Shown: in pieces, positions 34,055-47,873 of the stretch
Numbering within the stretch: the first letter of the stretch is position 1
How the letters are laid out: each line of letters opens with the position of its first letter
From: a bacterium
Lineage (GTDB): Bacteria > Chloroflexota > Dormibacteria > Aeolococcales > Bog-877
Reading direction: 5' to 3'
Assembly: GCA_021816695.1 (NCBI GenBank)
Contig: JAKAXE010000004.1
Span: 61-64,060, forward strand
DNA length: 64,000 nucleotides
The notes under the pieces: model-generated
The model's database searches: none
The model's input: only the letters and a program-made list of their open reading frames with translations
Told to the model about the DNA's origin: nothing
Position numbers and translations under genes: made by a program

Positions 34055-34882
34055 ATGTCCGTCGTCTTTGACTTCTCCGGGAGGGTGGCGCTGGTGACCG
34101 GGGCGGGCCGGGGGGTCGGGAGGGTGACCGCGGCGGCCTTCGCCGACTCCGGGGCCAAGGTGGTGGCGGCTGACCGCGACGCCCCTGGGCTCGCGGAGAC
34201 CGTGGCCCCCTACTCCGGGCGGATGATCTCCGTGGAGGCGGACATCAGCACCCCGGAGGGCGCCCGGGAGGTGGTCTCCAGAGCGGTCCGGGAATTCGGT
34301 CGGCTGGACATCTGCGTGAACAACGCCGCCGTCGCCCCCCACACCAGCCTTCTGGAGGAACGCGTCGAGGTCTGGGACCGGGTCTACGCGGTCAACTGCC
34401 GGGGCACCTTTCTCATGACCCAGGCGGCCGCCCGGGCGATGATCGAGCAGGGCACCGGAGGGCGGATCATCAACTTCTCCTCCGGAGTCAGCTCCCGCGG
34501 CTCGGCCGGCGCCGCCGCCTATGCCAGCAGCCGGGCCGCCACCGAGAGCTTCACCCGGGTGGCGGCCATCGAGCTGGCCCCGCAGGGGATCCTGGTCAAC
34601 TGCGTCAGCCCGGGGCTGATCGACACCCAGCCCAAGCCGCTGCCCCCGGCCATGGCCGCCTCGCTGGCCGCCCGGATCCCGAGGTTGCCCCTGGCTCGGC
34701 CCGGGAGACCCGAGGAGGTGGCGGCGATGGTGCTCTGGCTCAGCTCAGAGGCGGCGAGCTACGTCACCGGGACGGTGCTCTCGGTGGACGGGGGGGCGGG
34801 AGTCGGCTCCCGCTCCGAGGACCCGGTCGTGGACGACGACGTCCGCTACGACTGGGTCACCGGCCGGCAGCGACCCGGCTGA
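34055..34882 (+). CDS. SDR-family oxidoreductase (FabG-like) with YxxxR in place of YxxxK
   Basis: TGAGRGVG, NNAA, YASSRAA, VSPGLIDT, VDGG. Confidence 0.85.
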   Translation: MSVVFDFSGRVALVTGAGRGVGRVTAAAFADSGAKVVAADRDAPGLAETVAPYSGRMISVEADISTPEGAREVVSRAVREFGRLDICVNNAAVAPHTSLLEERVEVWDRVYAVNCRGTFLMTQAAARAMIEQGTGGRIINFSSGVSSRGSAGAAAYASSRAATESFTRVAAIELAPQGILVNCVSPGLIDTQPKPLPPAMAASLAARIPRLPLARPGRPEEVAAMVLWLSSEAASYVTGTVLSVDGGAGVGSRSEDPVVDDDVRYDWVTGRQRPG

Positions 34883-34903: not shown

Positions 34904-36253
34904 TCAGCGGAAGCCGAGGCGGAAGCCCCGCACGCGCAGGCTGGGAGCGCTGGCGACCCCGTTCCAGACGTTCATGATCGGCTGGCTGAGGAGCTGCGAG
35001 CCCACCCCGTCGGTACGGCTCAGGATTCCCAGCACCTCCTCGGTGAATCGGGAGGAGGCCACCGGACCCGCCAGCCGTCCCCCGCGGATGCGAAACGCCG
35101 CGTCGCGGGTAACCCCGGTGAAGGCGCTGGTCTCGGGGTCCACCATGCGGGTGTAGTGGAAGCGGGAGATGTAGAGGCCGTCGTCCACCCCTTCGATCAG
35201 CTCCGCGGTGGTTGAGGATCCGGGTCTCAGGATGAGATTGGCCGGGGTCGGGGACGGGGCCTCCTCCCTGGCGATGTGGGCGTGCCCGGTGCTCCTGGTC
35301 CCCGCGGCCCGGGCCGTGGCCAGGTCGAACACGGCCGCTCCGACCCGTCCACGGTCCAGCATGGGGACCTCCACCTTGGGCATCCCCTCGATGTCGAAGG
35401 GGATGGGGAGGCCGACCCCGGCGAAGAGCGCGTCATCGGCGACGGTGACCAGCTCGGAGGCGACCGTCTGCCCCTGCCGCCTGGCAACCGCCCCGGCGCC
35501 GGCGGCCACGGCCTCCCCGGTGAACCCCATGGCGCCGAAGAAGGTGAGCATATCCCCCACGGCCAGTGGTCCCAGGACCACGTCGTAGGTACCCGGTGGG
35601 AGCGGCTCCGGGTCCCGGGCGGCGGCGGCCTCGGCCAGCGCTCCGTGCACCATCTCCTCCACCGCCATCCGCTCCACGGATCGCGACAGGTCGCCCCGGT
35701 AGGCCGAGCCCGCTCCGGAGCGGACCAGGAGGGTGGCCGCGGCCTCGGTGGCGCTGACATAGGCGCGCCCCGAGGGACCGGCGGTAGCCATCTCCACGAG
35801 AACCCGGGAGAGCATCCCGTTGGCGGTGGCGCCCGCGGCCTGGGCGAGGGTCATGGCGACCGAGGCCACCTGGCTGCGGGCACCCGCACCCCAGGCGGCG
35901 GTGTCCTCGTCCCACTCGGAGAAGGAGCCGGAGACGGCCTCCGCGGGAGCGCCGGCCGAGGTGAGTCCGGGCACCAGGGCGGCGGCCCTTCTGAGCGCCT
36001 CCGCGCCGGTGGCTCGAGCATCCTCCAGCCGGGAGGTGGCCACCCGGGCGGCGCCGCCACCTCGGTCCACGGTCACCATGAGCTGGACCTCCTCCACCGC
36101 CTGCGGCTGATGGACCCTGGTCCCGGCGAAGCGGGTGTGCTCCCCCTGGCGCACGGTGGTGAAGGCATGGGCACCTTCGCCTCCGGCAGCTAGCAGCGCC
36201 TCCTCCAGGCGGCCCAGTAGCTCGTCGCCTCCACGAAGCTGGGCGGCGATCAC
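34904..36253 (-). CDS. TldE/PmbA-family protein (non-catalytic partner)
   Basis: TRFAGTRVHQ, FDIEG, HAHIA, HYTRMVDP...FTGVTRD; no HExxxH; GTGA coupling to TldD. Confidence 0.88.
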   Translation of the reverse strand: MIAAQLRGGDELLGRLEEALLAAGGEGAHAFTTVRQGEHTRFAGTRVHQPQAVEEVQLMVTVDRGGGAARVATSRLEDARATGAEALRRAAALVPGLTSAGAPAEAVSGSFSEWDEDTAAWGAGARSQVASVAMTLAQAAGATANGMLSRVLVEMATAGPSGRAYVSATEAAATLLVRSGAGSAYRGDLSRSVERMAVEEMVHGALAEAAAARDPEPLPPGTYDVVLGPLAVGDMLTFFGAMGFTGEAVAAGAGAVARRQGQTVASELVTVADDALFAGVGLPIPFDIEGMPKVEVPMLDRGRVGAAVFDLATARAAGTRSTGHAHIAREEAPSPTPANLILRPGSSTTAELIEGVDDGLYISRFHYTRMVDPETSAFTGVTRDAAFRIRGGRLAGPVASSRFTEEVLGILSRTDGVGSQLLSQPIMNVWNGVASAPSLRVRGFRLGFR

Positions 36254-37737
36254 CCGGCCACCCCGATCCGGACGCCTCTCACCAGGATGGGGGCGGCGCC
36301 GTGGGAGACGAACCCCCACTGCTTGGGCTCGCCCTTGCCGCAGGGAAGCCCAAACACCTGGAGGGTCTCGGGGCCTCCGACCGCCTCCACCGATCCCCAG
36401 AACTCGGGGGTCACCCCGCCGTAGGAGGCGTTCCTGTACAGTCGGGTCCGCCGCCCCCGGCGGACCTCCCAGGCCACCTCGGTCCCGAACTGGAAGTTCA
36501 GGCGCTTCTCGTCGATGCTCCAGCTGCGGTCCATGTCCAGGTAGTAGCCGTCCCCCAGCCGTTCCAGGAGGGCGTCGAGGTCCCCCTCCCCCGGCCGGAG
36601 GCCGACGTGGGTGGAGAAGCAGAGGGGCATGAAGCTGTGGCCGTCGGCCCGCATGGCCGCGGTGCTGGACCGCCCGATCCGCTGGGCCGTCTCCCTGGAA
36701 GAGAGGAAGTCGTTGACGATCCCGTTCTCGATCAGGACCGCGGGTCGGGCCGGCTGGCCCTCGTCGTCGAAGGCGAAGGAGCCGCGGGCCCCGGGTGTGG
36801 TGGGGTCGGCGATCATGGTCACCGCTTCTGAGCCGTATCGCATCCGCCCCCGCTCCTCGGCGCGGATGAAGGAGGTGCCGGCAAACCCGGCCTCGTCCCC
36901 GAAGATCCGGTCCAGCTCCAGGGCGTGCCCGCAGGACTCGTGGATCTGCAGCGCGGTCATCGCCGGCCCCAGCACCAGGTCGGCCGTGCCCGCCGCCAGG
37001 ACCGGGGCTCGCAGCAGCGCCCGGGCCTCGTCCGCCACCCTGGGCAGCTCCGCGGGAAGCCGCAGCTCATCGAGGTACTCCCAGCCGGCGGCAGCGGTGT
37101 TGCCGTGAAATGAGTTGGGGTAGGAGCGCCGCTGCACCTCTCCGTCGCGAGCCGCCCAGACCTGGAGCAGCCCCCCGGTCTCCAGCAGCTCCTGGACCTG
37201 CCACGACCCCTCGCTGCTGGCGAAGCATCGGCGCTGGCGCTTGGCGTTGACCCCGGCCACCGCCCGCGTCACCTCCGGGGTGGCGAGCGCCTCCTCCAGA
37301 AGCCCGGCCACCAGCTGGTGCTTGGTGGATGGCGGAACGGCGAACGGGTCCACGATGAACGGCGTCCGGAAGTGGCCGCTGGCCCCCGGCAGAGGATCCA
37401 GGTGCGCCGAGTTCGGGCCCACCTGCGCCTCCGCCATCTCCACGGCGGCGACGGCTGCCTCGATCGCCTGAGAGGCGGGCCCGAGCACCCGGCTGCCGAA
37501 GCCCCAAGCCCCCCGGAGGAGCACCCGGACACCGAGCCCGACCACCTGCTCCAGCCGCCAGTCGGGCTCCCGGCCCGAGGCCGCATACAGCCGCTCCTCC
37601 ACCACCTCCACCAGTCGGGCGTCGGCGTAGGTCGCGCCCCGGCCGAGCGCCAGGTCAACGGCCTCCTGGGCGAGGGCGCGGGCTTCGTCTTCGGAATGCG
37701 CCCATGCCCAAGAGGACGCGGTGGCAATCTGGCTCAA
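36250..37737 (-). CDS. tldD: TldD-family zinc metalloprotease
   Basis: QIHESCGHALE (HExxxH), LPCGKGEP (C-terminal Cys ligand), FAFDDEG; TTG 37737 after SD GGAGGAGG. Confidence 0.9.
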   Translation of the reverse strand: MSQIATASSWAWAHSEDEARALAQEAVDLALGRGATYADARLVEVVEERLYAASGREPDWRLEQVVGLGVRVLLRGAWGFGSRVLGPASQAIEAAVAAVEMAEAQVGPNSAHLDPLPGASGHFRTPFIVDPFAVPPSTKHQLVAGLLEEALATPEVTRAVAGVNAKRQRRCFASSEGSWQVQELLETGGLLQVWAARDGEVQRRSYPNSFHGNTAAAGWEYLDELRLPAELPRVADEARALLRAPVLAAGTADLVLGPAMTALQIHESCGHALELDRIFGDEAGFAGTSFIRAEERGRMRYGSEAVTMIADPTTPGARGSFAFDDEGQPARPAVLIENGIVNDFLSSRETAQRIGRSSTAAMRADGHSFMPLCFSTHVGLRPGEGDLDALLERLGDGYYLDMDRSWSIDEKRLNFQFGTEVAWEVRRGRRTRLYRNASYGGVTPEFWGSVEAVGGPETLQVFGLPCGKGEPKQWGFVSHGAAPILVRGVRIGVAG

Positions 37738-37807
37738 ATCGGGAACTCCTCCTCCCCGCTGTCGACGGGGGCGGGGGGGCGGCCGCCCCGGGCGGCCGCC
37801 CCCGAGG

Positions 37808-39655
37808 TCACTTGGTGTAGTACCAGTCCTGCGGGAAGATGGCGAGCAGGGGGTTGGCGGGAAGGACCCCCTTGAGCTTGCTCTTGACCTCCAGGAGCTG
37901 GTAGTCGGCATTGGGGATCCAGAGCTCCGGAAGCTGCTTGGCGACGTAGGTCTCCCAGGCGAACAGCGCCGACTGTCCGCCCTGAACGGCCGCGTTGGAG
38001 AGCCCCACCTCGGTCTGGTCGCAGTAGCTGCCAGCGTTCAGCGCCCCGCCACAGCGGAAGTAGCCGCCGCCCGGCGGGTAGTAGGGCAGGGTGTAGACCG
38101 CACCGCCCCAGTCGATCATCTGCCAGCTGCAGGCAGCCTGCGAGCTGGTGCAGGGGATGGCGTCCGCGTAGGCGAAGGTGCTGCCCTTGAGGTTGATCTG
38201 GACCCCGGCGTGGCTGGCCGTGGACTTGTAGATCTCCATCTCCGTGAGGCCGGCCGTGTAGTTGTCCTGGTAGATGAGGGTGAAGGACAGCTGGCTGCCC
38301 TTGGCCACCCCGGGGCCGCATTGATTGGATGCGGTGCCGGGGTTCTGACAGCTGTCCACGCCGCCGGGAACGATGCTCCAACCGTGCTGCCGCAGCAGCG
38401 ACTCGGCGGTGCTGATGCTGTACGGGTACGGGTAACCCTGGGCGCTGAGGCTGGGTGCCGTCACCGCCGGGGCGCCGTTGACGACCGGCCCGTAGGTGGG
38501 CACGCCATACCCCACCAGCGCCGTCTTGATCCACTGGGGCTGGTCGACGAGCCGCTCCAGCGCCTGGCGGATGTAGAGCTGATGGAAGAGGGGGCCCGCG
38601 GTCGGGTTGTTGAAGTTGATGAACAGGGAGTTGAAACCGTACACCGGCCAGACGCCGAAGCTGTATCCCTGGTGGGACAGCTCGGTCGTCAGGTTGGAAT
38701 CGCTGGTGGGCAGGTAGCCCACGTCCACCGAGCCCGCCCGGACCGCGTCCACCTCCGCCGTCTCACTGTCGAAGGGCTCGAAGATGAGCTTGGAGATGTG
38801 GGGCTTGTCCGGCCCGCTGTAGCTCGGGTTGGGCTGCATCACGATGTAGCCACTGTTAAGGAAGGTGGTGAGCCGCCACGGCCCATCCACCACCTTCCAC
38901 AGCGGGTTGGTCGCGTAGGTGGCGATGTTCTTCGACTGAGCATCGAGGAAGTTGAAGACGGACTGGGCACCGGCGGTGGTCTGGTCGTAGTTGCCGATGG
39001 CGCCCGAGGAGGACTCCTTGTCCCAGGCGTGCTGGGGCATGGGGGTGATCTGCGCCAGCTCGTTGTAGGTGAACCAGGTCGGGGAGTACGCCTTGTTGAG
39101 GGTGAACGTCAGCTTGTAGGTGCTGTCGATCTTGATCGAGGTGACGTTGTCCGGAAACAGCCCGGGCACGTACGCCGCCCAGTTGTCCTTCTCCGCCCTT
39201 AACTCGTTCATCCAGAAGGTGACGTCCCGGGCGCTCACCGGGGTGCCATCCGACCAGACGTAGTGCTTGAGGGTGATCACCACCTGGGTGTTCCCGTCCT
39301 GGTAGACAGGTGGATAGGCCAGGCTGATCTTGTAGTTGATCGCGGGCGAGGTCCCGGACCCGAACTGATACAGCGGCGGGATCATGAGGTACTCAAACTG
39401 GCTCTGGTACTGCACCGTGAAGTCGGTGGCCGGGTACAGCGGCAGAATCCAGGGCGGGCCGATGCCCGCCGTCTCGGCCACCGTCACCGTTCCCCCGGAG
39501 ACCGGCTTGCCGCTGCCCGAGGCCTGCCCGGAGTTGGTGCTGGCGCAGCCCGCCACCAGCCCGAGCGCCACAAGGCCCGATACCCAGATGGGGCCGGCGG
39601 CCCAGCGCCGGCCGCCTATCCTCATCAACCTGGAAAGCATTCTCATCCCGGTCAC
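37808..39655 (-). CDS. Family-5 (peptide/opine/oligosaccharide) ABC substrate-binding lipoprotein, with no adjacent permease or ATPase
   Basis: Lipobox LVAGC, WSDGTPVSARDVTFW, VDGPWRL, IRQALERLVD; SD TAAGGAGG. Confidence 0.88.
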   Translation of the reverse strand: MTGMRMLSRLMRIGGRRWAAGPIWVSGLVALGLVAGCASTNSGQASGSGKPVSGGTVTVAETAGIGPPWILPLYPATDFTVQYQSQFEYLMIPPLYQFGSGTSPAINYKISLAYPPVYQDGNTQVVITLKHYVWSDGTPVSARDVTFWMNELRAEKDNWAAYVPGLFPDNVTSIKIDSTYKLTFTLNKAYSPTWFTYNELAQITPMPQHAWDKESSSGAIGNYDQTTAGAQSVFNFLDAQSKNIATYATNPLWKVVDGPWRLTTFLNSGYIVMQPNPSYSGPDKPHISKLIFEPFDSETAEVDAVRAGSVDVGYLPTSDSNLTTELSHQGYSFGVWPVYGFNSLFINFNNPTAGPLFHQLYIRQALERLVDQPQWIKTALVGYGVPTYGPVVNGAPAVTAPSLSAQGYPYPYSISTAESLLRQHGWSIVPGGVDSCQNPGTASNQCGPGVAKGSQLSFTLIYQDNYTAGLTEMEIYKSTASHAGVQINLKGSTFAYADAIPCTSSQAACSWQMIDWGGAVYTLPYYPPGGGYFRCGGALNAGSYCDQTEVGLSNAAVQGGQSALFAWETYVAKQLPELWIPNADYQLLEVKSKLKGVLPANPLLAIFPQDWYYTK

Positions 39656-39815
39656 GATCCCTCCTTAAGTCGCGGCCGCTAGCGGACTTCGGGGTCGCGT
39701 TCGCACCCCGAAAACAGACGTTGGAAGGCCGTCCGGTGACGGCCCGTGGACACCCAAGTGGGCCTGCGCCCCAACCGGGGAGACGCCAGGGGAACCGTTG
39801 GCGAGGTCAGCCCCA

Positions 39816-40571
39816 TCACTCGCCGCTCACTTCACTGGAGATGTCGCCCCCGGAGGCGCCGGGGGTAGTGTCCGCCCGATGGTCGAGGGGCTCGACGTAC
39901 CCCTTGATCAGGCGGGCGTACGCACCCTCTAGGTGGACCCGGATCATTTCCAGCGCCTTCTCGGTGTCATGGGCGGCCATGGTCTCCACCAGCTCCCCGT
40001 GCTCCCGGTGGCCCACCTCGCTGAAGTCCGGATTCACAAGGTTGCGCGTCAGAAGGAAGCGGAAGATGTGCGAGCGGAGCATGGTCCAGCAGGCGTAGAG
40101 CCGGTCGTGGCGCGCAGCTTGGTACACCAGGTCGTGGAACGCGACGTCCAGCTCGGCATATTCCCGGGGGCTGAGGCGTGCGGCGGCCTCAGGCATTCGG
40201 TTGGCCAGCTCGCGGAGGCGGCCCAGGTCCTCCGGGGTGGCCCGCGCGATGGCCAGCCGCACGGCGAGGCTCTCCAGGCTGGCCCGCAGGGTGTAGACCT
40301 CCTCCACATCCTGTGCCGTGAGCCCCACCACGATGGCGCCGCGATGGCTGCGGATGGCCACCAGCCCCTCGTGGCCCAGCTGGGCAAAGGCGTCCCGCAC
40401 CGGGCTTCGGCTCACCTGCAGCGCCGCTGAGATCTCCGCCTCGCGCAGGTGCTGGCCGGGTTTGAACCTCCCCGTGACGATGGCCTCCCTCAGTCGGTCT
40501 GCCACCTCGTCGGAGAGGACCCGGTGGGGAACCGCGGTCAGGGCTTTGGCTTCGCTGAAGTCGTCTGGCAC
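39816..40571 (-). CDS. GntR-family (FadR/FCD) transcriptional regulator
   Basis: LREAEISAALQVSRSPVRDAFAQLGHEGLV winged HTH; FCD LDVAFHDLV and HREHGELVE; start moved to GTG 40571 because the promoter lies inside the longer track ORF. Confidence 0.93.
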   Translation of the reverse strand: MPDDFSEAKALTAVPHRVLSDEVADRLREAIVTGRFKPGQHLREAEISAALQVSRSPVRDAFAQLGHEGLVAIRSHRGAIVVGLTAQDVEEVYTLRASLESLAVRLAIARATPEDLGRLRELANRMPEAAARLSPREYAELDVAFHDLVYQAARHDRLYACWTMLRSHIFRFLLTRNLVNPDFSEVGHREHGELVETMAAHDTEKALEMIRVHLEGAYARLIKGYVEPLDHRADTTPGASGGDISSEVSGE

Positions 40572-40581
40572 GGTGGATGTA

Positions 40582-40610
40582 ATATTGTCGACAATCCATC
40601 TACCTGTCAA
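40582..40610 (-). promoter_or_regulatory. Promoter TTGACA-N17-CAATAT with palindromic GntR-type operator ATTGTCGACAAT (40584-40595)
   Basis: Perfect 12-bp palindrome overlapping the -10; same architecture as the 41657-41685 site. Confidence 0.85.
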
Positions 40611-40708: not shown

Positions 40709-41467
40709 TCATGCGCGCGCCGCCTCGGTCCGCAGGCTGATGGCCTCAGACAGCTGGAAGGCGTCGAACCGCAGCCCCGTGGCCTGCTCCGCATCCAGGG
40801 CGGCGAGGTAGGCGAAGGCGGGGGCCAGGCGGCTGGGTGAGATCATCCGCTCCCGCATCTCGGGGGTGTAGTGCCCCCACGACATGGGAGTGTCGATCGG
40901 CGCTCCTGTGGTCGCGGTGTTCACCGCGATGTTGAACTCGGCGCCCTCAATACTGAGCACCTTCATGAGCCCTTCCTGGCCGTGCTTAGCGGGGGTGTAG
41001 GCGGACTCCAGGGGGAAGCCCCGCAGGGCGGAGCCGGAGGAGATGAAGACGATGCTTCCGTGGCCCTGAGCGATCATCGGCTCCCAGACCCCCTTGGCCA
41101 AGACGAAGGCCCCCTGCAGGATGATGTCCAGCTCCCGGCGCCAGCCCTCGAAGGTCCACTCCCGGAACGGGCGCGGCGTCAGGACGGCGGCGTCGTGGAT
41201 CAAGGCCCGCGGCGGCCCCACCTGACGCACGGCCTCGGCCACGGCGGTCTGGGTCCCGGCGGCATCGGCCAGATCTGCCACCACCGGGAGCGCCTGGATC
41301 CCGAGCGCCAGGAGTTCGTGAGCCAGCGAGGCCACCTTGCCCTCCTGCACGTCGAAAAGGACCAGGTTCATCCCCCGTGCCGCCAGCTCCCGGGCGATCG
41401 CGTTTCCCAGGCCGTCTGCGGCGCCGCTGAGGAAGCACCACTGGCCGCGGATGTCGTGCAGACCCAT
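40709..41467 (-). CDS. SDR-family oxidoreductase
   Basis: SGAADGLG, HDAA, SSGSA, YTPAKHG; SD GGGAGG before ATG 41467. Confidence 0.88.
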   Translation of the reverse strand: MGLHDIRGQWCFLSGAADGLGNAIARELAARGMNLVLFDVQEGKVASLAHELLALGIQALPVVADLADAAGTQTAVAEAVRQVGPPRALIHDAAVLTPRPFREWTFEGWRRELDIILQGAFVLAKGVWEPMIAQGHGSIVFISSGSALRGFPLESAYTPAKHGQEGLMKVLSIEGAEFNIAVNTATTGAPIDTPMSWGHYTPEMRERMISPSRLAPAFAYLAALDAEQATGLRFDAFQLSEAISLRTEAARA

Positions 41468-41656
41468 TAGCTCGCCTCCCAGTTCGGGCGGGGTTGGCCA
41501 CCGCCGCTGTCCACCATGGGCGGGCGCCCCAGCTGCCACCCGGAGCGGAGCGCCGGGTCCGAGGTCCCCGTGTCCAAGGAACCCGCGCGGGCGTCCCTTC
41601 CCGGGGGGCGGGCGGCGGCGTTGGCGTGCTGGCGATGCTCAATCACGGTGTACCAC

Positions 41657-41685
41657 ATATTGTCGACAATCATCAGCTGTGTCAA
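41657..41685 (-). promoter_or_regulatory. Promoter TTGACA-N17-CAATAT with operator ATTGTCGACAAT (41659-41670)
   Basis: Exact second copy of the palindrome and promoter geometry, upstream of the SDR. Confidence 0.85.
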
Positions 41686-41710: not shown

Positions 41711-42868
41711 TCATGGGAGCGGCTCGGATCGGACCTCGGTCCAGGACCGGGAGCGGTGCGAGGCCTCGACCGCGTTGATCACCTCCTGCACCGCCGCCCC
41801 CTGGGCGAAGTCGCCCTGGTTGTCATCCCGGCCTGAGGTGATCTCCTCCACGAAGCTGCGGATCAGGTTGCCGTAGCAGGTCTCCTCCCAGCCGTGACCG
41901 GTCTCGTGCTGGGGCGGGAAGAACTCCTCGGGGATGGGTAGGCGCCTGAACTCCACCTGGTCGGCGGTGGCCCCCCAGAGGCGCTGCCACTCGCCGTTCT
42001 CCTCGACGATCCGGCAGATCAGGGCCCCGCGGTCGCCGTACAGCCGGGCTTCCACGCCGGGGTAGTTGCCCACGGTGACATAGCTGCTTTGGATCGTCCC
42101 CAGAGCCCCGTTGGCGAACTTGGCGATGAAGACGTCGCCGTCATCCAGGTTGATCGGCTCCCGGGCGCTGTCGAGATTGGTGCGGCGGCGCTCCGGTACG
42201 AAGTTGCGCAGCACTCCCACCGTCTCCTTGATGCCGGACCCGGTGAGCATCAGCCCGATGTCGATGATGGGAGCTCCATAGCCCTCGAGGCTGGAGACCG
42301 TGATCGCCTCCTCCCCCGGCTCCCAGCCGCCCACCTGGTCGTCGGCGGGGGCGGCGAGGAGCCGCTTGTCGGCTGGATTGTCCGGGTCCAGCCACTGGCT
42401 GTTCTGCTCGTAGCCGTTGAAGACGAAGGGGCGGCCGCACCACCCCTGGGCCACCAGATGGGCCATGTAGGAGATGGCCGGCGCGTAGCGGAAGGTGAGC
42501 CCGACCTTGGTCTTCAGACCCCGGCGCCGCGCGATCTGCGCCGCCCTCCAGACATCCTCCGCCCGATGGGCCACCGGCTTCTCGGAGAGGCAGTGCTTGC
42601 CCGCCTCCAGGGAGGCGAACACCAAGGGGTCGTGCTCGTCCCGGGTGCAGACGTCCACCACGTCGATGTCGTCCCGGGCCAGCACCTCACGGTAGTCGGC
42701 GGAGATCCCATCAGCCCCGAACTGGGCGGCGGCGGCGCTGGCCAGCTCCTGGTTGAGGTCACAGACCACGGCCAGCCTTACTCCCGGGCACCTTTGCCAG
42801 CCGGGCAGGTGGGCCCGCTGCGACCACCTCCCGGCACCGATGACTGCCACCCGCAGCTCGTCCGCCAT
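41711..42868 (-). CDS. Gfo/Idh/MocA-family oxidoreductase (paralog of 46647-47765)
   Basis: GAGRWS, LSEKP, FNGYEQNSQWLDP, SSLEGYGAPIID. Confidence 0.88.
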   Translation of the reverse strand: MADELRVAVIGAGRWSQRAHLPGWQRCPGVRLAVVCDLNQELASAAAAQFGADGISADYREVLARDDIDVVDVCTRDEHDPLVFASLEAGKHCLSEKPVAHRAEDVWRAAQIARRRGLKTKVGLTFRYAPAISYMAHLVAQGWCGRPFVFNGYEQNSQWLDPDNPADKRLLAAPADDQVGGWEPGEEAITVSSLEGYGAPIIDIGLMLTGSGIKETVGVLRNFVPERRRTNLDSAREPINLDDGDVFIAKFANGALGTIQSSYVTVGNYPGVEARLYGDRGALICRIVEENGEWQRLWGATADQVEFRRLPIPEEFFPPQHETGHGWEETCYGNLIRSFVEEITSGRDDNQGDFAQGAAVQEVINAVEASHRSRSWTEVRSEPLP

Positions 42869-42873
42869 CTACC

Positions 42874-43866
42874 TCACCTCCCTGATTCTCTGGAAGCGGC
42901 CGCCCGAACCCACTCGAGCGCCTGGGCCGTGGGAATCGAGTCGTCGATCGCCAGGTGCCGGGGGCTGGCTCCCTCCCTCAGCACTGCGTGGATGTGCCGG
43001 AGCAGCGGGGCGAAGGTGGGCTCGTCGGTCATCAACCGCTCCCTCTCGCCTGGGCGCCCGGCGACACGCAGCTCGAAGGTGTCATGGGCACCGGGATGAA
43101 AGGGGTCGGTGAGCTCCAGAGAGCCCTCGGTGCCCAGGAGCCGAGTGGTCGTGTCCCTCGCCCGGGAGAGACCGCTGCTGAAGAGGAGGCGGAGCCCTCC
43201 ACCGTACTCGAGGAGGCCACAGGTCTCCAGGTCAACCCCGGAAGGGGCCGCGGTGGCGGAAACCAGGGCGCGCCCGGGAACCTGCCGGAAAAGGAGTGCG
43301 GCCAGGTGGACGGGGTAGCAGCCCACGTCGTTGAGCGCACCTCCGGCCAGCTCCGGGCTCCAGCGGATGTTATCCGGCCGGCGGACCGGGAAGTGGAAGT
43401 GGCTCACCACCTCCCTGAGCTCTCCGATCTCCCCCCCGGAGATCAGCTCCTCGGCCCTCAGGTACTGCCGGTGGAAGGGGAAGGCGAAGGCCTCCCACAG
43501 TGGGGCTCGGGCCCCCCGGGCCAGGGCCACCAGCTCCTCCACCTCGGCCAGGTCGACGCCCAGCGGTTTCTCGCAGAGCACCGCCTTGCCCGCTCGCAGC
43601 GCCGCCCCGGCCCACTCCACGTGAACGGTGTTGGGTAGGGCCACGTAGACCGCGTCGACCTCGTCGGTACCGATCGCCCCCTCATAGTCGGAGATCCGGC
43701 ACTCCACCTCCTCGCGAGCCAGCAGCTCGGCGGCTCGCCGGCTGTCCCGGCTGCCCACGACCACCACCTCACCGCCGCCGGCGGCCCGCAGCGAGGGCAG
43801 GAAGTTGGCCCTGAAGATGTTGGCGGCGCCGAGAACCCCCCAGCGGACCGATGCCGGCTCAGCCAT
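42874..43866 (-). CDS. Gfo/Idh/MocA-family oxidoreductase (GFOR/aldose dehydrogenase-like, Tyr type)
   Basis: WGVLGAANI, VYVALPNTVH, LCEKP, GGALNDVGCYP. Confidence 0.9.
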   Translation of the reverse strand: MAEPASVRWGVLGAANIFRANFLPSLRAAGGGEVVVVGSRDSRRAAELLAREEVECRISDYEGAIGTDEVDAVYVALPNTVHVEWAGAALRAGKAVLCEKPLGVDLAEVEELVALARGARAPLWEAFAFPFHRQYLRAEELISGGEIGELREVVSHFHFPVRRPDNIRWSPELAGGALNDVGCYPVHLAALLFRQVPGRALVSATAAPSGVDLETCGLLEYGGGLRLLFSSGLSRARDTTTRLLGTEGSLELTDPFHPGAHDTFELRVAGRPGERERLMTDEPTFAPLLRHIHAVLREGASPRHLAIDDSIPTAQALEWVRAAASRESGR

Positions 43867-44746
43867 TCAGCCCCTCCTCCGTCCCCAGGGAGAGCAGCTC
43901 AGCCAGGTTGGCCCCGGGGTCCACTGCCAGGGCGAGCTTCCCCTCGCGGCCGGAGAGGAGGACGGTGAGCCCCAGGCCGTGCCCCGGCAGACGGCTGGCC
44001 CCGTGGGACACGACGCCCACCACCACCGAGCCCGGGCGATATCCGCTGATGTAGGCCGCGTCCCAGTCCCGGACCGCAACCAGGTCACCCAGGCGCGCCT
44101 GGGCCAGCTCCGGGATCGTCTCCAGCAGGGAGGGGGGAGTCTGCAGCTCCCAGGAGGTGGCGGCGGCCACCCGCCCGGCCCCCATCCCGACCGCCTCCGG
44201 GGGCAGCTCCAGCCTCACCCGGACCTCCAACCCGTCCCCCCTGGGCTCCGGGGCCCAGGCTGCCCAGAGCTCGGGCCCCAGGCTGTGAGCCACCACGGCC
44301 GGGGAGGGGCACGGCCGGAGGCCGCGGCCGATCGCCTCAATCGCCACCTGGTCTCCGGGGGCGAGCACCTCCAGGGCAGCGGCCGGGAGGTCGACCAGCA
44401 CCTCCTGGAAGCGCTGGAACTCCTCGTGCTTCCCGGTCACCACGCCCTCGGCGCCGGCGGCCGCCCCGGTTCGGACCCTGGCCCGGTTGCCCACACAGGC
44501 GAAGAGGTTCAGGGCCCGGTTGGCCGCCACGTCCGGATGGGCGATGCTCGCCCCGGGCTGGACCCGATCCGCCTCCCAACCGAAGGCGGGCATCCCGACC
44601 CGCACGTTGTAACGGACCCCCTGGCAGCCCACCGGCACGAACGCTCGGCCCTCAAAGTCGGTGAGGTAGGGCGAGGACTCCATCTCCGGCTGGCTCACCC
44701 ACCCCACCAGCATGGTTCGCACCAGACGCGGGGAGTCCACGGTCAT
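43859..44746 (-). CDS. DUF4438-like protein, copy B
   Basis: Aligns by eye with copy A: YNVRVG, QPGAS, ACVGN, VTGKH, GDLVAV, GVVSHG..PGHGLG; ATGA coupling. Confidence 0.75.
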   Translation of the reverse strand: MTVDSPRLVRTMLVGWVSQPEMESSPYLTDFEGRAFVPVGCQGVRYNVRVGMPAFGWEADRVQPGASIAHPDVAANRALNLFACVGNRARVRTGAAAGAEGVVTGKHEEFQRFQEVLVDLPAAALEVLAPGDQVAIEAIGRGLRPCPSPAVVAHSLGPELWAAWAPEPRGDGLEVRVRLELPPEAVGMGAGRVAAATSWELQTPPSLLETIPELAQARLGDLVAVRDWDAAYISGYRPGSVVVGVVSHGASRLPGHGLGLTVLLSGREGKLALAVDPGANLAELLSLGTEEGLNG

Positions 44747-45609
44747 CGGGCCAGCTCCAAAAGGTTGGCCAGATTGCGGCCCGGCCCCGGGTGGTAGGAG
44801 AGAAGCTCCCGTCGGCCGCTGAGCAGGGTGACCACCCCGACCCCGTGCCCCGGGCTGGGGCCGAGAGCGTGGACCACCACCCCCACGGCCGAGTACCGGG
44901 GATCGTAGCGGCGGCCGAAGCGGTGGTCCTGGCCGGGCATGCCGACGAGGTCCCCCACCCTCAGCCCCTCCAGTCCCAGCCGGCGGACAGTCTCGCGGTC
45001 GTGCAGCATCACGTCGCAATTGGCCCACTCGCAGTCCATCCCCAGTCCCGCGCCCATCACCTCGGGGGTGAGCTCCGCGGCCACGGCCACCGAAATGGCC
45101 CCCGGACCGGTGAGCTCCAATCCCAGGCGGTTCAGGAGGTGCGGCGAGCAGTTCCTGCAGGCGACCTCGGGAGCGTCCAGGATGGCCAGCCCCTGGCCAC
45201 TGGCCCGCACCAGGAGGCGGTCTCCGGGGAGGATCTGCTCCAGGGCCTCCTGGGGGAAGTCGATCAGCACGTAGGCGTGCTTGCCGGCCACAATTCCCCG
45301 GGAGCCCCGCGCCGCCCCGCTGAGCACCTGGACGGGATTGCCCAGGCAGGCCAGGACCTGGAAGGCGAGGTTGGCTGACTCCCCCTCGGCCTCCGCCGAC
45401 ACCCCCGCTTCGCCATGGTCGCAGGCGAAGTCGAACACCGGGGACCCCACCCGGATGTCCGGGGTCACCCCGGACATGCCAGGCAGGATCCCGGGCAGAT
45501 CGTCCCGGTCCACGGCGTAGGTGCCGGGGTGGCGAGGGTAGCTGACTCTTCCCAGTAGCCCCACCTGCACCAGCATCTCCTCGTTGGTGCGGAGAAGAGC
45601 GGGCGGCAT
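44743..45609 (-). CDS. DUF4438-like protein (Thermotoga TM1086 family), copy A
   Basis: LRTNEEMLV, DHGEAGVS, ACLGN, GSRGIVAGKH, LRVGDLV, GVVVHA..PGHGVGV match my recollection of the family. Confidence 0.8.
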   Translation of the reverse strand: MPPALLRTNEEMLVQVGLLGRVSYPRHPGTYAVDRDDLPGILPGMSGVTPDIRVGSPVFDFACDHGEAGVSAEAEGESANLAFQVLACLGNPVQVLSGAARGSRGIVAGKHAYVLIDFPQEALEQILPGDRLLVRASGQGLAILDAPEVACRNCSPHLLNRLGLELTGPGAISVAVAAELTPEVMGAGLGMDCEWANCDVMLHDRETVRRLGLEGLRVGDLVGMPGQDHRFGRRYDPRYSAVGVVVHALGPSPGHGVGVVTLLSGRRELLSYHPGPGRNLANLLELAR

Positions 45610-46643
45610 CAGTAGAGACGGTCCTTGCGCAGCACGTTCAGGAGTTCCGCCCCGTGCCGGTACCGCTCCAGGTTCTCGCTGAAGAGCTGGGCCAGAAGCT
45701 GGTTCTCACCGGCCACCGTGCTCATGGAGTGTGGCGTGACCAGGACGTTGGCAAGGTCCCACAGTGGGCTCCCCGGCGGGAGCGGCTCCTCCCGGAAGAC
45801 ATCCAGGGCGGCCCCGCGAAGCCTGCCCTCCCGAAGCGCTGCGGTGAGGGCGTCCTCGTCCACCACGGTGCCTCGGGCCAGGTTCACCAGCACCGCCGAG
45901 TGGGGCAGTAGGGAGAGCCGCGCTCCCGAGATGAGCCCCTCGGTCTCGTCGGTGTGGGGCATGGCCAGGACCAGGAAGTCGGCCTCAGGCAGGGCGCTCT
46001 CCAGCTCCGCCACCTCGAGCAGCCGGTCGACGCCGGACGAGGCCGCCGTCCTGCCGTCCAGGGAGCGCACCACCCCCGTGGTTCGCGCCCCCAGGGCCCT
46101 GGCCAGGGTCGCCACCTCCCGGCCGATGCTGCCCAGCCCGACGATGACCACCTCCTGGCCCGCCACCAGGCGGCCGCTGCGTCGCGCCCACTGGTGGAGC
46201 CGTTGGTCGGCGAGGATCTCCGGCAGGTCGCGGTTGAAGTAGATCATGGCGAAGATGGCGAACTCCGCCAGCGCCCGCCCATGGACTCCCCGGGCGGTGG
46301 TCACCACCACCTTCGCACTCTGGTCCAGCCCCACCCGGCGAACGAACTGTCCGACCCCCGCCGAGGTGGCCTGGATCCAGCGGAGATTGGGGAGATGGGC
46401 CAGCTCGGTGTGCAGGGCAGGCGGCCCAAAGTCGAACATCACCTCCGCCCGGGAGAGCAGCGTACGCCAGCGGTCGAGTTCCTCCCCCTGGGCCCCGGGC
46501 ATACGGTGGTGGCCGGGGTACTGGGGGGTGGCGATGAGGTCCTCGGGGTACTCGAAGGTGTACTCCGGATGGGACCGCCGCAGGCGCTCCACCAGCTCCG
46601 GCTCCAGGGGGGTGGTGAACACCACCAGGCGGTCCACTGGCAT
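45609..46643 (-). CDS. D-isomer-specific 2-hydroxyacid dehydrogenase
   Basis: SAGV, VGLGSIG, NLARG, LDVFREEPL, VTPH (R/E/H triad). Confidence 0.92.
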   Translation of the reverse strand: MPVDRLVVFTTPLEPELVERLRRSHPEYTFEYPEDLIATPQYPGHHRMPGAQGEELDRWRTLLSRAEVMFDFGPPALHTELAHLPNLRWIQATSAGVGQFVRRVGLDQSAKVVVTTARGVHGRALAEFAIFAMIYFNRDLPEILADQRLHQWARRSGRLVAGQEVVIVGLGSIGREVATLARALGARTTGVVRSLDGRTAASSGVDRLLEVAELESALPEADFLVLAMPHTDETEGLISGARLSLLPHSAVLVNLARGTVVDEDALTAALREGRLRGAALDVFREEPLPPGSPLWDLANVLVTPHSMSTVAGENQLLAQLFSENLERYRHGAELLNVLRKDRLY

Positions 46644-46646
46644 CGC

Positions 46647-47765
46647 TCAGCCCTCCAGGGGGAGCTGAACCCAGCCGTGGCGGCGGTGGGACAGCTCGAC
46701 GGCATTGATCACCTCCTGCACCCGGGCGGCGGCCAGGAAGTCGGCCTGCGCCGGAAGGTCGGGGTCGGCGATCTCACTGACGAAGGCGGAGATCAGGTTG
46801 GCGTAGAAGGCGGTGTCCCAGGGCTCGGTGAGACCGCCCCCGGGTGGGTACAGCCGCTCCGGAACCTCAAGGCTGCGGAACTCCACCTGGTCCCGGCGGG
46901 CGCCGTAGAGCCGCTCACACACCCCCTCCTCCTCCACCAGCCGGCAGATCAGGGCACCCTCGGTGCCGTACAGCCGCGCCTCCAAGCCGGGGTAGTTGCC
47001 CACCGTGACATAGCTGCTCTGGATGGTGCCGATGGCGCCGTTGGCGAAGCGGCAGAGGAAGGCGTCGGCGTCGTCGATCGGCAGCCGCACCGGGACCTGG
47101 GATCCCGGTACCAGGCGCTCGGGGACGAGATTGGCCAGCTGACCCACCACCTCCTCGAGCTCGGAGCCCACGAACCAGAGGGCGAGGTCGATGATCGGGG
47201 CCCCGTAACCCTCCAGGGAGCTCACCTGGATGTCGGCTCCGGCTCCCGGATCCCCCTCGCCGGCCCGGATGGGGGTCATGGGGTCGAGGAACTGGGAGTT
47301 CTGCTCGAAGCCGTTGAAGACCAGGGGCCGTCCGACGTACCCCTCGGCGATCAGCTCGCGCATGCGCATCATCGCGGGGCTGAACCGGAAGGTGAAGCCC
47401 ACCTTGGTGCGGAGCCCGCGGGAGAGCGCCAGCTCCCCCGCGTCCCGGGTGCGGGCCCACTCCCGGTGCACCGGTTTCTCGCAGAGGACGTGCCTCCGGG
47501 ACTCGAGGCCGGCCATGGCGCTCAGGAAGTGAGCCGGCCCCCAGGTGACCACGTCCACAACCTGGACCTCGGGGTCGGCTAGCAGCTCGGCCTCCGAGGA
47601 GTAGGCCCTGGAGCCGGGAGCCATGGCTGAGAGAGCACGGGCTCGATCCTGGTCCAGGTCGTACACCCCGACCACCCGAGCCCGCGGGTCCCGCAACCAG
47701 CCGGGAAGGTGGGCGCGCTGAGCCCAGCGTCCCGCCCCCACGATCGCCGCCCCCAGCTCTGCCAA
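46647..47765 (-). CDS. Gfo/Idh/MocA-family oxidoreductase (paralog of 41711-42868)
   Basis: GAGRWA, LCEKP, FNGFEQNSQFLDP, SSLEGYGAPIID; TTG 47765 after SD GGAGGGG. Confidence 0.88.
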   Translation of the reverse strand: MAELGAAIVGAGRWAQRAHLPGWLRDPRARVVGVYDLDQDRARALSAMAPGSRAYSSEAELLADPEVQVVDVVTWGPAHFLSAMAGLESRRHVLCEKPVHREWARTRDAGELALSRGLRTKVGFTFRFSPAMMRMRELIAEGYVGRPLVFNGFEQNSQFLDPMTPIRAGEGDPGAGADIQVSSLEGYGAPIIDLALWFVGSELEEVVGQLANLVPERLVPGSQVPVRLPIDDADAFLCRFANGAIGTIQSSYVTVGNYPGLEARLYGTEGALICRLVEEEGVCERLYGARRDQVEFRSLEVPERLYPPGGGLTEPWDTAFYANLISAFVSEIADPDLPAQADFLAAARVQEVINAVELSHRRHGWVQLPLEG

Positions 47766-47814
47766 CTGCTCCCCTCCAACACCGGGCCGGACCCGTCTGA
47801 GCGTGATTGGAGAA

Positions 47815-47829
47815 AGTATATTGTCGACC
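47815..47829 (-). promoter_or_regulatory. Degenerate GntR box (ATATTGTCGACC) adjoining a TATACT -10 hexamer at the head of the oxidoreductase operon
   Basis: ATTGTCGAC at 47820-47828 matches 9 of 12 nt of the perfect boxes; no clear -35. Confidence 0.6.
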
Positions 47830-47873
47830 GAGCCCACGCGCCCACGCGGGTCAGCCGAGATGACGACACCGGG

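Follow-up and report, generated by a model that had tools for sequence, protein, structure and literature searches.

Organization of the locus

The stretch of DNA analyzed here (the window) comprises 64,000 nucleotides of contig JAKAXE010000004.1 (assembly GCA_021816695.1), has a G+C content of about 70%, and is most closely related to metagenome-assembled genomes of Candidatus Dormibacterota/Dormibacteria. In this study, attention was focused on four co-directional genes of its minus strand, which encode a GntR-type regulator (gntR), a family-5 solute-binding protein (SBP), and the two subunits of a TldD/PmbA-type metalloprotease (tldD and pmbA), and on their relationship to the genes located upstream. 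Pfam analyses revealed that the entire co-directional row consists of GfoA (the first of three Gfo/Idh/MocA oxidoreductases), 2-Hacid_dh, two DUF4438 paralogs, GfoB, GfoC, a short-chain dehydrogenase (SDR), GntR with an FCD domain, SBP_bac_5, TldD, and PmbA (Table 1). A preliminary description of this DNA had placed gntR, SBP, tldD, and pmbA on one strand with short gaps, and this was confirmed both by Pfam and by reading the gene boundaries directly from the sequence at the junctions. The intergenic gaps are 160 nt (gntR-SBP), 70 nt (SBP-tldD, containing a hairpin), and -4 nt (tldD-pmbA).

At the gntR junction, the GTG start codon lies 9 nt past the -10 hexamer, and the gntR-SBP transcript is therefore predicted to be leaderless or nearly so. 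The SBP gene starts with GTG at 39655, which is preceded by the Shine-Dalgarno (SD) sequence AAGGAGG, and its product carries a signal peptide with a lipobox. The TTG start codon of tldD is preceded by the SD sequence GGGGAGGAGG. The GTG of pmbA overlaps the tldD stop codon (GTGA), and the two genes are thus predicted to be translationally coupled.

Table 1. Predicted features of the GntR-associated gene row, with coordinates in the window
Feature	Coordinates	Strand	Evidence
Gfo/Idh/MocA oxidoreductase A (GfoA), gene 1 of six-gene enzyme operon	46647..47837	-	Pfam
D-isomer-specific 2-hydroxyacid dehydrogenase	45609..46643	-	Pfam PF02826; under every NCBIfam equivalog cut-off
DUF4438 paralog A (TM1086 family)	44743..45609	-	Pfam; PDB 3N99/3DCL, E 4e-49; model with predicted local distance difference test (pLDDT) 92.5
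DUF4438 paralog B; start overlaps paralog A stop	43859..44746	-	Pfam
Gfo/Idh/MocA oxidoreductase B (GfoB)	42874..43866	-	Pfam
Gfo/Idh/MocA oxidoreductase C (GfoC); 50% identical to the single Gfo of the Streptomyces operon	41711..42868	-	Pfam; blastp
Predicted palindromic operator ATTGTCGACAAT, exact copy, in the GfoC-SDR intergenic promoter	41659..41670	.	Sequence
Short-chain dehydrogenase (SDR)	40709..41539	-	Pfam
Predicted gntR promoter TTGACA-N18-AATATT; exact operator ATTGTCGACAAT (40584-40595) over the -10	40581..40610	-	Sequence
GntR/FCD regulator, FadR-type, GTG start at 40571	39816..40571	-	Pfam PF00392 and PF07729; sequence
Family-5 solute-binding lipoprotein (SBP)	37808..39655	-	Pfam PF00496, E 5.5e-42; lipobox LVAGC
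Perfect 13-bp GC hairpin, no U-run, directly 3′ of SBP stop	37775..37803	-	Sequence
tldD, catalytic subunit, TTG start at 37737	36250..37737	-	PF19289, E 4e-34; HESCGH at residue 266, CGK at 466
pmbA, PmbA/TldE-type partner, GTG start at 36253	34904..36253	-	PF19289, E 3e-42; without HExxxH
Second SDR, convergent on pmbA, 21 nt from pmbA stop	34055..34882	+	Pfam

Association of tldD-pmbA with DUF4438 genes

The gntR-SBP-tldD-pmbA order was kept in five related loci (L001, L003, L005, L087, and L091), and SBP-tldD-pmbA was still kept in L002 and L004, where the contig is cut inside the SBP gene; across all of these loci, SBP identity ranged from 65% to 94%. Moreover, the entire Gfo/DUF4438 row upstream was also kept in L003 and L005. 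Among 80 genomic loci of SBP relatives, TldD-PmbA followed the SBP gene only in five Dormibacteria loci with at least 65% SBP identity, and paralog-level relatives (<50% identity) had ordinary dppBCDF neighbors instead.

Outside the Dormibacteria, the nearest TldD homologs were actinomycete proteins about 55-62% identical to that of the window. When six members of this clade, 56-62% identical, were inspected (Streptomyces L081, Actinoplanes L082, Nakamurella L083/L084, Cnuibacter L171, Streptosporangium L173, and uncultured L172), the surrounding cluster in every case comprised two DUF4438 genes besides Gfo, TldD, and PmbA. In five of the six, the genes form a single co-directional row, (2-Hacid_dh)-SBP-DppD-DppF-DppC-DppB-Gfo-TldD-PmbA-DUF4438-DUF4438-GntR, in which most neighbors overlap by 1-4 nt; in L172 the cluster genes are more dispersed, and GntR and another Gfo gene lie between tldD-pmbA and the DUF4438 pair. 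The association was also examined from the DUF4438 side in 80 metagenome loci, using a 4-sequence alignment as the query (an 8-sequence alignment was too diverse). Both copies of the DUF4438 tandem pair were present in 68 of the 80 loci, the remaining 12 being cut by contig ends, and the usual partners were family-5/Dpp transporters, Gfo, 2-Hacid_dh, SDR, and GntR. Where both flanks extended for 5 kb or more, 6 of 11 loci contained TldD/PmbA; with the limit set at 3 kb, the count was 7 of 19. TldD/PmbA thus frequently accompanies the DUF4438 genes, but as an optional component. The preliminary description had regarded SBP-TldD-PmbA as a tail that supplies the upstream oxidoreductases with a substrate. 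A link of this tail to the DUF4438/Gfo genes is well supported: the trio co-occurs with these genes across two phyla, and the promoter found upstream of it is the operator-bearing gntR promoter rather than a GntR-independent promoter of its own.

The window's genome contains a second TldD/PmbA pair, on contig C74, whose TldD is about 34-35% identical to that of the window. Both TldD types are present in the Streptomyces genome, whereas Planotetraspora, which is without DUF4438, has only the 35% type. Within the window's family, DUF4438 was found in 13 of 25 genomes, compared with none of 16 in the sister family. Cluster-type TldD (64-93% identity) was detected in half of the 12 DUF4438-positive relatives and in none of the six DUF4438-negative relatives of the window's family; in three of the six carriers, it lies on the DUF4438 contig, about 5.5 kb from the pair. 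The second type (about 34% identity) was present in 17 of 18 relatives. In a maximum-likelihood tree, a branch of 3.35 parted the two types, and the Dormibacteria proteins were monophyletic (support 100/99) and nested among actinomycete subclades that the tree did not resolve (rows L167 and L168 were disregarded, as wrong longest open reading frames had been taken and the branch length was 10). At the level of sequence, these combined data showed that the tldD/pmbA pair belongs to a specialized clade found only together with DUF4438 genes, in Dormibacteria and Actinomycetota.

A predicted operator shared by the promoters of the gene row

The regulator combines a winged helix-turn-helix GntR domain and an FCD domain with a predicted palindromic operator that overlaps its target promoters, and is assigned by these features to the FadR subfamily. 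In the 2.49-Mb assembly, two exact copies of the palindrome ATTGTCGACAAT were found (0.01 expected), one in the gntR promoter and the other in the SDR promoter of the GfoC-SDR region. In addition, a GfoA half-site, ATTGTCGACCGA (half-site ATTGTCGAC), lies at 47820-47831 beside a TATACT -10 element, and because of this arrangement the true start of GfoA is probably downstream of 47837. The predicted operator of GntR was thereby shown to lie on the promoters of the enzyme operon, of the SDR gene, and of gntR itself. In other loci, boxes of the ATTGTCGACAAT type with 0-2 mismatches were found before gntR (L001, L003, L091, L115, and L116), before the first Gfo gene (L003 and L091, each with 1 mismatch, and L085), and ahead of the SBP-first operons of Streptomyces L081 and metagenome locus L139; L085 has no gntR, and a box there immediately precedes SBP. 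A further 19 sites with 2 mismatches in the window's genome looked like noise and were not used.

The actinobacterial SBP-DppDFCB-Gfo-TldD-PmbA-DUF4438x2-GntR operon (L081-L084, L171, and L173) and the Dormibacteria set have orthologous enzymes, an FCD-type GntR (30% identity), the operator core TGTCGACA, and an optional TldD/PmbA in common. When the window was compared with Streptomyces L081, identities were 60% for TldD, 52% for PmbA, 50% for Gfo, 42% for DUF4438, 30% for GntR, and 23% for SBP, making TldD the best-conserved module protein between the phyla. The Dormibacteria set differs from the actinobacterial operon in that its order is rearranged (enzymes, then gntR, then SBP-tldD-pmbA), it contains two extra Gfo genes and two SDR genes, its transporter comes from another family-5 lineage, and, in the window's genus, the permease genes lie apart from the cluster. 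The distribution of the module, which is patchy and family-restricted, and its high identity across phyla fit horizontal spread.

One might argue that this adjacency is meaningless, a housekeeping protease pair and a spare SBP having landed beside a catabolic operon. The SBP family is indeed highly expanded in this genome (at least 11 paralogs), and gene order differs between Dormibacteria and actinomycetes. However, the association holds across phyla despite that rearrangement, so that the co-occurrence data contradict a chance origin; the phyletic pattern is strict, the operator is shared, and a distinct housekeeping-type pair is present besides. We therefore consider chance adjacency very improbable.

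Transcription of SBP, tldD, and pmbA

Neither a consensus promoter nor a terminator was found in the gntR-SBP gap. Directly 3′ of the SBP stop codon lies the GC hairpin without a U-run (Table 1), and from this hairpin to the tldD start there are only 35 nt, including the SD sequence, which leaves no room for a separate tldD promoter. A GTCGACA sequence between the hairpin and tldD was considered as an extra operator and rejected (5 mismatches; not conserved in L001). GC hairpins of 12-14 bp, likewise without a U-run, were located at the same place in L001, L003, L005/L087, and L091. Given that their sequences are unrelated, it is the hairpin structure itself that is conserved. In L005 and L087, GntR-SBP-TldD-PmbA-DppB-DppC lie on one strand, which was counted for co-transcription. 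Read-through from the SBP gene would be the simplest source of tldD-pmbA mRNA in the window's genus.

TldD and PmbA proteins

TldD and PmbA of the window matched Pfam PF19289 only; close homologs also match PF01523 and PF19290. As stated in the preliminary description, TldD has an intact HExxxH motif and a C-terminal cysteine: the HESCGH and the CGK cysteine both align to the corresponding motifs of Escherichia coli TldD (PDB 5NJ5, E 5e-20), in a match that spans only the C-terminal 240 residues. The metal-binding and catalytic residues of TldD are thus retained. HESxGH and CGK were invariant in the 12 TldDs compared, inside and outside the clade, and HExxxH was absent from the window PmbA and from all 11 PmbAs compared. 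No signal peptide was detected in TldD or PmbA. By sequence, the pair is assigned to the TldD/TldE (M103) family. It resembles E. coli TldD/TldE (PmbA) in that there are two adjacent paralogous genes, that HExxxH and the distal CGK occur at aligned positions in TldD and neither occurs in the partner, and that both pairs have the Pfam PmbA_TldD domain, similar lengths, and a cytoplasmic location. Unlike the E. coli pair, the window pair belongs to a separate clade, shares its genome with a second TldD/PmbA pair, and is part of a regulon of importer and oxidoreductase genes controlled by a GntR repressor instead of being a stand-alone housekeeping gene. Its proposed substrate is an imported nutrient, in contrast to the ribosomal peptide processed by E. 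coli TldD/TldE.

The PmbA partners of the DUF4438-associated clade share the motif STGHAH(I/V)(A/G)REE, with the Ser changed to Thr in the near relative L001, and C74-type PmbA shows only H-G-H at this position. The motif may mark a second functional site in this subunit, which is presumed to be non-catalytic.

TldD/TldE is present in roughly 60% of bacterial genomes, and its best-established functions are in proteolytic processing, namely of microcin B17, CcdA, and klebsazolicin (PMC10885120). It is therefore conceivable that TldD/PmbA matures or quality-controls a pathway protein, e.g. by trimming a DUF4438 subunit, and leaves the nutrient untouched; its optional presence could then mean that the housekeeping pair substitutes for it elsewhere. 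This seems quite unlikely to us, in that two genomes (G028 and G127) carry DUF4438 and no detectable TldD anywhere, DUF4438 proteins are of similar length and can be aligned at their ends whether or not TldD is encoded nearby, TM1086 was crystallized at full length without such a partner, and the unit contains no conserved small gene of a precursor type.

The solute-binding protein and its candidate permeases

The SBP_bac_5 domain, together with the predicted export and lipidation signal, assigns the SBP to family 5 (cluster C). Its matches in the PDB were all weak (E at least 1e-8) and were to proteins that bind nickel, peptides, or cysteine, from which the ligand is not inferable. Neither cognate BPD_transp_1 permeases nor oligo_HPY ATPases were found beside it in the window. 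The preliminary description had reported no permease or ATPase in the window; this holds for the Opp/Dpp type, of which Pfam found none, but not in general, since a Liv-type ATP-binding cassette (ABC) system lies at about 14.5-19.4 kb and an ABC-ATPase-like stretch near 5.4-6.0 kb. Similarly, the SBP described there as an orphan is one locally, but not when the entire genome is considered. In L005 and L087, DppB-DppC(-SDR) follow pmbA on the same strand, and in L085 they follow SBP, TldD/PmbA being convergent there. Orthologs of these permeases are located at the very start of contig C76 of the window's genome (C76:40-1944; DppB 68-72% and DppC 78% identity), and a dppDF pair (C76:5738-7908) lies 4 kb from them. 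The only site in the genome with a single mismatch to the predicted operator, AATGTCGACAAT, was found on contig C91 at 11528, just 3′ of a TTGACA-N17-TAGACT promoter. About 200 nt 3′ of this site is an operon (C91:11440-16669) encoding a paralogous SBP (40% identical), DppB, DppC, and an SDR. This operon is probably a further member of the GntR regulon, and its DppBC is a second candidate translocator for the SBP.

Three more SBP paralogs without adjacent permeases were located beside GntR genes (C67:3983-14392 and C96:6298-13144). Genes for an isochorismatase-type hydrolase, an AMP-dependent/acyl ligase, a glyoxalase-like protein, a zinc-dependent alcohol dehydrogenase, class-V aminotransferases, and an NCS1 permease neighbor these detached paralogs. 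A detached SBP with a GntR regulator is thus a recurrent habit of this genome and not a peculiarity of the locus; many SBP paralogs beside GntR genes and few shared permease sets may characterize nutrient uptake in the uncultured Dormibacteria. A comparable situation is that of E. coli MppA, a family-5 binding protein encoded apart from the OppBCDF permease that serves it. Like MppA, the window SBP has no permease genes of its own and presumably docks onto a Dpp/Opp-type translocator encoded elsewhere. Unlike for MppA, sharing is suggested here solely by orthology (C76) and an operator site (C91), and at least four locally permease-less paralogs lie beside GntR genes in the window's genome.

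The classical ligands of family-5 SBPs are peptides, and OppA, AppA, and DppA-type proteins are among the PDB matches. Given also that E. coli TldD/E degrades unfolded peptides whatever their sequence (PMC10885120), and that the trio is a block of its own after gntR in Dormibacteria, SBP-TldD-PmbA might be a co-regulated but chemically separate peptide-scavenging module, which imports and degrades oligopeptides while the oxidoreductases act on something else. We regard this as unlikely. In five of the six inspected actinomycete loci, tldD-pmbA lies between Gfo and the DUF4438 pair with 1-4-nt overlaps, cluster-type TldD never occurs in DUF4438-negative relatives, and C74 already provides a separate pair of the near-universal type. 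Moreover, the other locally orphan SBP paralogs adjoin enzymes for small molecules (isochorismatase-type hydrolase, acyl ligase, and aminotransferases), not peptidases.

DUF4438 and the nature of the substrate

When the DUF4438 model (pLDDT 92.5) was compared with the PDB by using Foldseek, only TM1086 was retrieved (next match E 0.17), which gave no chemical clue. The two TM1086 entries (3DCL/3N99) hold 5 and 30 chains, which hints at a pentamer-based assembly. A homolog search with DUF4438A returned soil metagenome proteins only, and no TM1086. None of ten cluster proteins reached an NCBIfam equivalog cut-off; the best scores of the Gfo proteins, far below the cut-off, were to inositol, levoglucosan, and glycoside-3 dehydrogenase models. 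In a literature search, no mention of DUF4438 was found (TM1086 matches were irrelevant), nor any published description of the gene set.

Class I/II aminotransferases were found beside DUF4438 clusters in at least seven loci and luciferase-like monooxygenases in six; RidA, a dihydrodipicolinate synthase-family aldolase, and glycoside hydrolases of families GH20 and GH3 were found once each. Monooxygenase and aminotransferase genes of these types recur beside actinomycete-type DUF4438 clusters (L136, L139, L140, L141, L149, L160, L171, and L082); the window's cluster contains neither. Carboxylates are the usual signals of FCD regulators. The recurrent aminotransferase and RidA neighbors, the FCD regulator, and the sugar-type dehydrogenases together suggest, loosely, that the substrate is a carboxylated compound of sugar-like or polyol-like character that bears an amine or amide.

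The preliminary description had proposed a glycated (Amadori) or opine-like substrate. Nothing was found that identifies such a compound, and the proposal remains conjecture: in the 11 cluster genes and the convergent SDR, Pfam detected only Gfo, 2-Hacid_dh, DUF4438, SDR, GntR/FCD, SBP_bac_5, and PmbA_TldD, and no deglycase or kinase (FrlB/FrlD), flavin adenine dinucleotide (FAD)-dependent fructosyl-amine oxidase, or MocD/E-type enzyme. Opine and Amadori systems (Agrobacterium moc/soc and E. coli frl) do resemble the regulon in having an ABC importer with a dedicated SBP, a Gfo/Idh/MocA dehydrogenase, and a local repressor. They differ from it in that the window set is without a deglycase, sugar kinase, or FAD amine oxidase by Pfam, and in that its DUF4438 and TldD/PmbA have no counterpart in those systems.

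Proposed role of the gene set

On the evidence of conservation, phyletic pattern, and predicted operator sites, we think it rather probable that gntR-SBP-tldD-pmbA is the uptake and pre-processing arm of one GntR/FCD-controlled catabolic regulon, the core of which would be the DUF4438 paralog pair and the NAD-dependent oxidoreductases (Gfo/Idh/MocA, 2-hydroxyacid dehydrogenase, and SDR). In such a regulon, the SBP, as a surface lipoprotein, would capture the substrate and pass it to Dpp-type permeases encoded elsewhere (the C76 dppBC orthologs or the C91 SBP-dppBC operon), and the C76 dppDF ATPases would energize import. Transcription from an autoregulated gntR promoter would run through the SBP gene, and the hairpin that follows may cut read-through or stabilize the upstream mRNA, so that tldD-pmbA would be made in smaller amounts than SBP, as in many ABC operons. 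The cytoplasmic TldD/PmbA heterodimer would then hydrolyze a peptide or amide bond of the imported compound, most likely removing a peptidyl or acyl group, and the trimmed product would enter the Gfo/DUF4438 route. Given that many DUF4438 clusters are without the pair, this step would be an accessory one.

A small-molecule amidase role of this kind would have a precedent, by functional analogy only, in LmbIH/CcbIH. This TldD/TldE-like pair of lincosamide biosynthesis is entered as an N-deacetylase in table 1 of PMC12945683 (see also Vobruba et al. 2022, as cited in PMC10885120). It is likewise a TldD/E-type pair inside an actinomycete small-molecule pathway cluster, and it shows that an amide on a small sugar-linked molecule can be hydrolyzed by this fold; the LmbIH/CcbIH pair is biosynthetic, whereas the role proposed for the window pair is catabolic. 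Trimming of a peptide up to a modified residue would, by analogy, fit the "pencil-sharpener" mechanism of E. coli TldD/E (PMC10885120).

Several findings weigh against the proposed uptake and pre-processing role. About half of the well-flanked DUF4438 clusters are without TldD/PmbA, and no TldD hits were obtained in two DUF4438-carrying Chloroflexota genomes, indicating that the pair is dispensable for the core chemistry. The SBP and its counterpart in the Streptomyces operon are not orthologs (23% identity), and DUF4438 clusters are served by at least three family-5 transporter lineages, so that the ligand may differ between clusters. The GC hairpin that follows the SBP gene could act as a terminator lacking a U-run, and the 130-145 nt between SBP and tldD in L003, L005, and L091 would accommodate a distinct promoter. 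The DUF4438 fold, NCBIfam, and the literature gave no substrate clue. Finally, to our knowledge, the biochemically defined TldD/E peptidases all act on unfolded peptides, not nutrients.

As a more speculative extension, which we put forward only tentatively and hold to be less likely than its opposite, the DUF4438-associated TldD/PmbA clade may be a hydrolase dedicated to catabolism, which would remove a peptide or N-acyl group from a conjugate taken up by the cell (e.g. a peptide that is glycated or linked to an amino sugar, or a mycothiol-like N-acyl amino-sugar-inositol from dead actinomycetes) and feed an undescribed pathway in which a DUF4438 heteromer of unique fold acts at a key step. 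If this is true, the M103 family would have its first substrate-specific role in nutrition.

Substrate-specific ABC uptake and catabolic regulons are already known as a kind; what is new here is the Dormibacteria rearrangement, the phyletic test, the cross-phylum operator, the post-SBP hairpin, and the permease candidates. The physiological role of TldD/TldE is still unclear beyond a few antibiotic peptides and CcdA, and a distinct TldD/PmbA clade strictly tied to one inducible import and oxidoreductase regulon in two phyla offers a concrete genetic setting for asking about that role. Practical handles include cultivable actinomycete carriers such as Actinoplanes sp. N902-109, Nakamurella flavida, Cnuibacter physcomitrellae, and Streptomyces sp. 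AM 4-1-1, a defined predicted repressor and operator, and an SBP that could be used for ligand fishing. In addition, DUF4438, a family of unknown function with a structure (TM1086) solved since 2008, is now tied to a defined regulon.

The convergent SDR gene

The second SDR gene of the window is convergent on pmbA (Table 1). In L003, L005, and L091, orthologs 74-76% identical to its product are encoded 3′ of pmbA on the same strand as pmbA. Given these same-strand orthologs, this gene was probably once part of the unit and then inverted in this lineage, and a local inversion together with loss of dppBC may thus have occurred in the window's genus.

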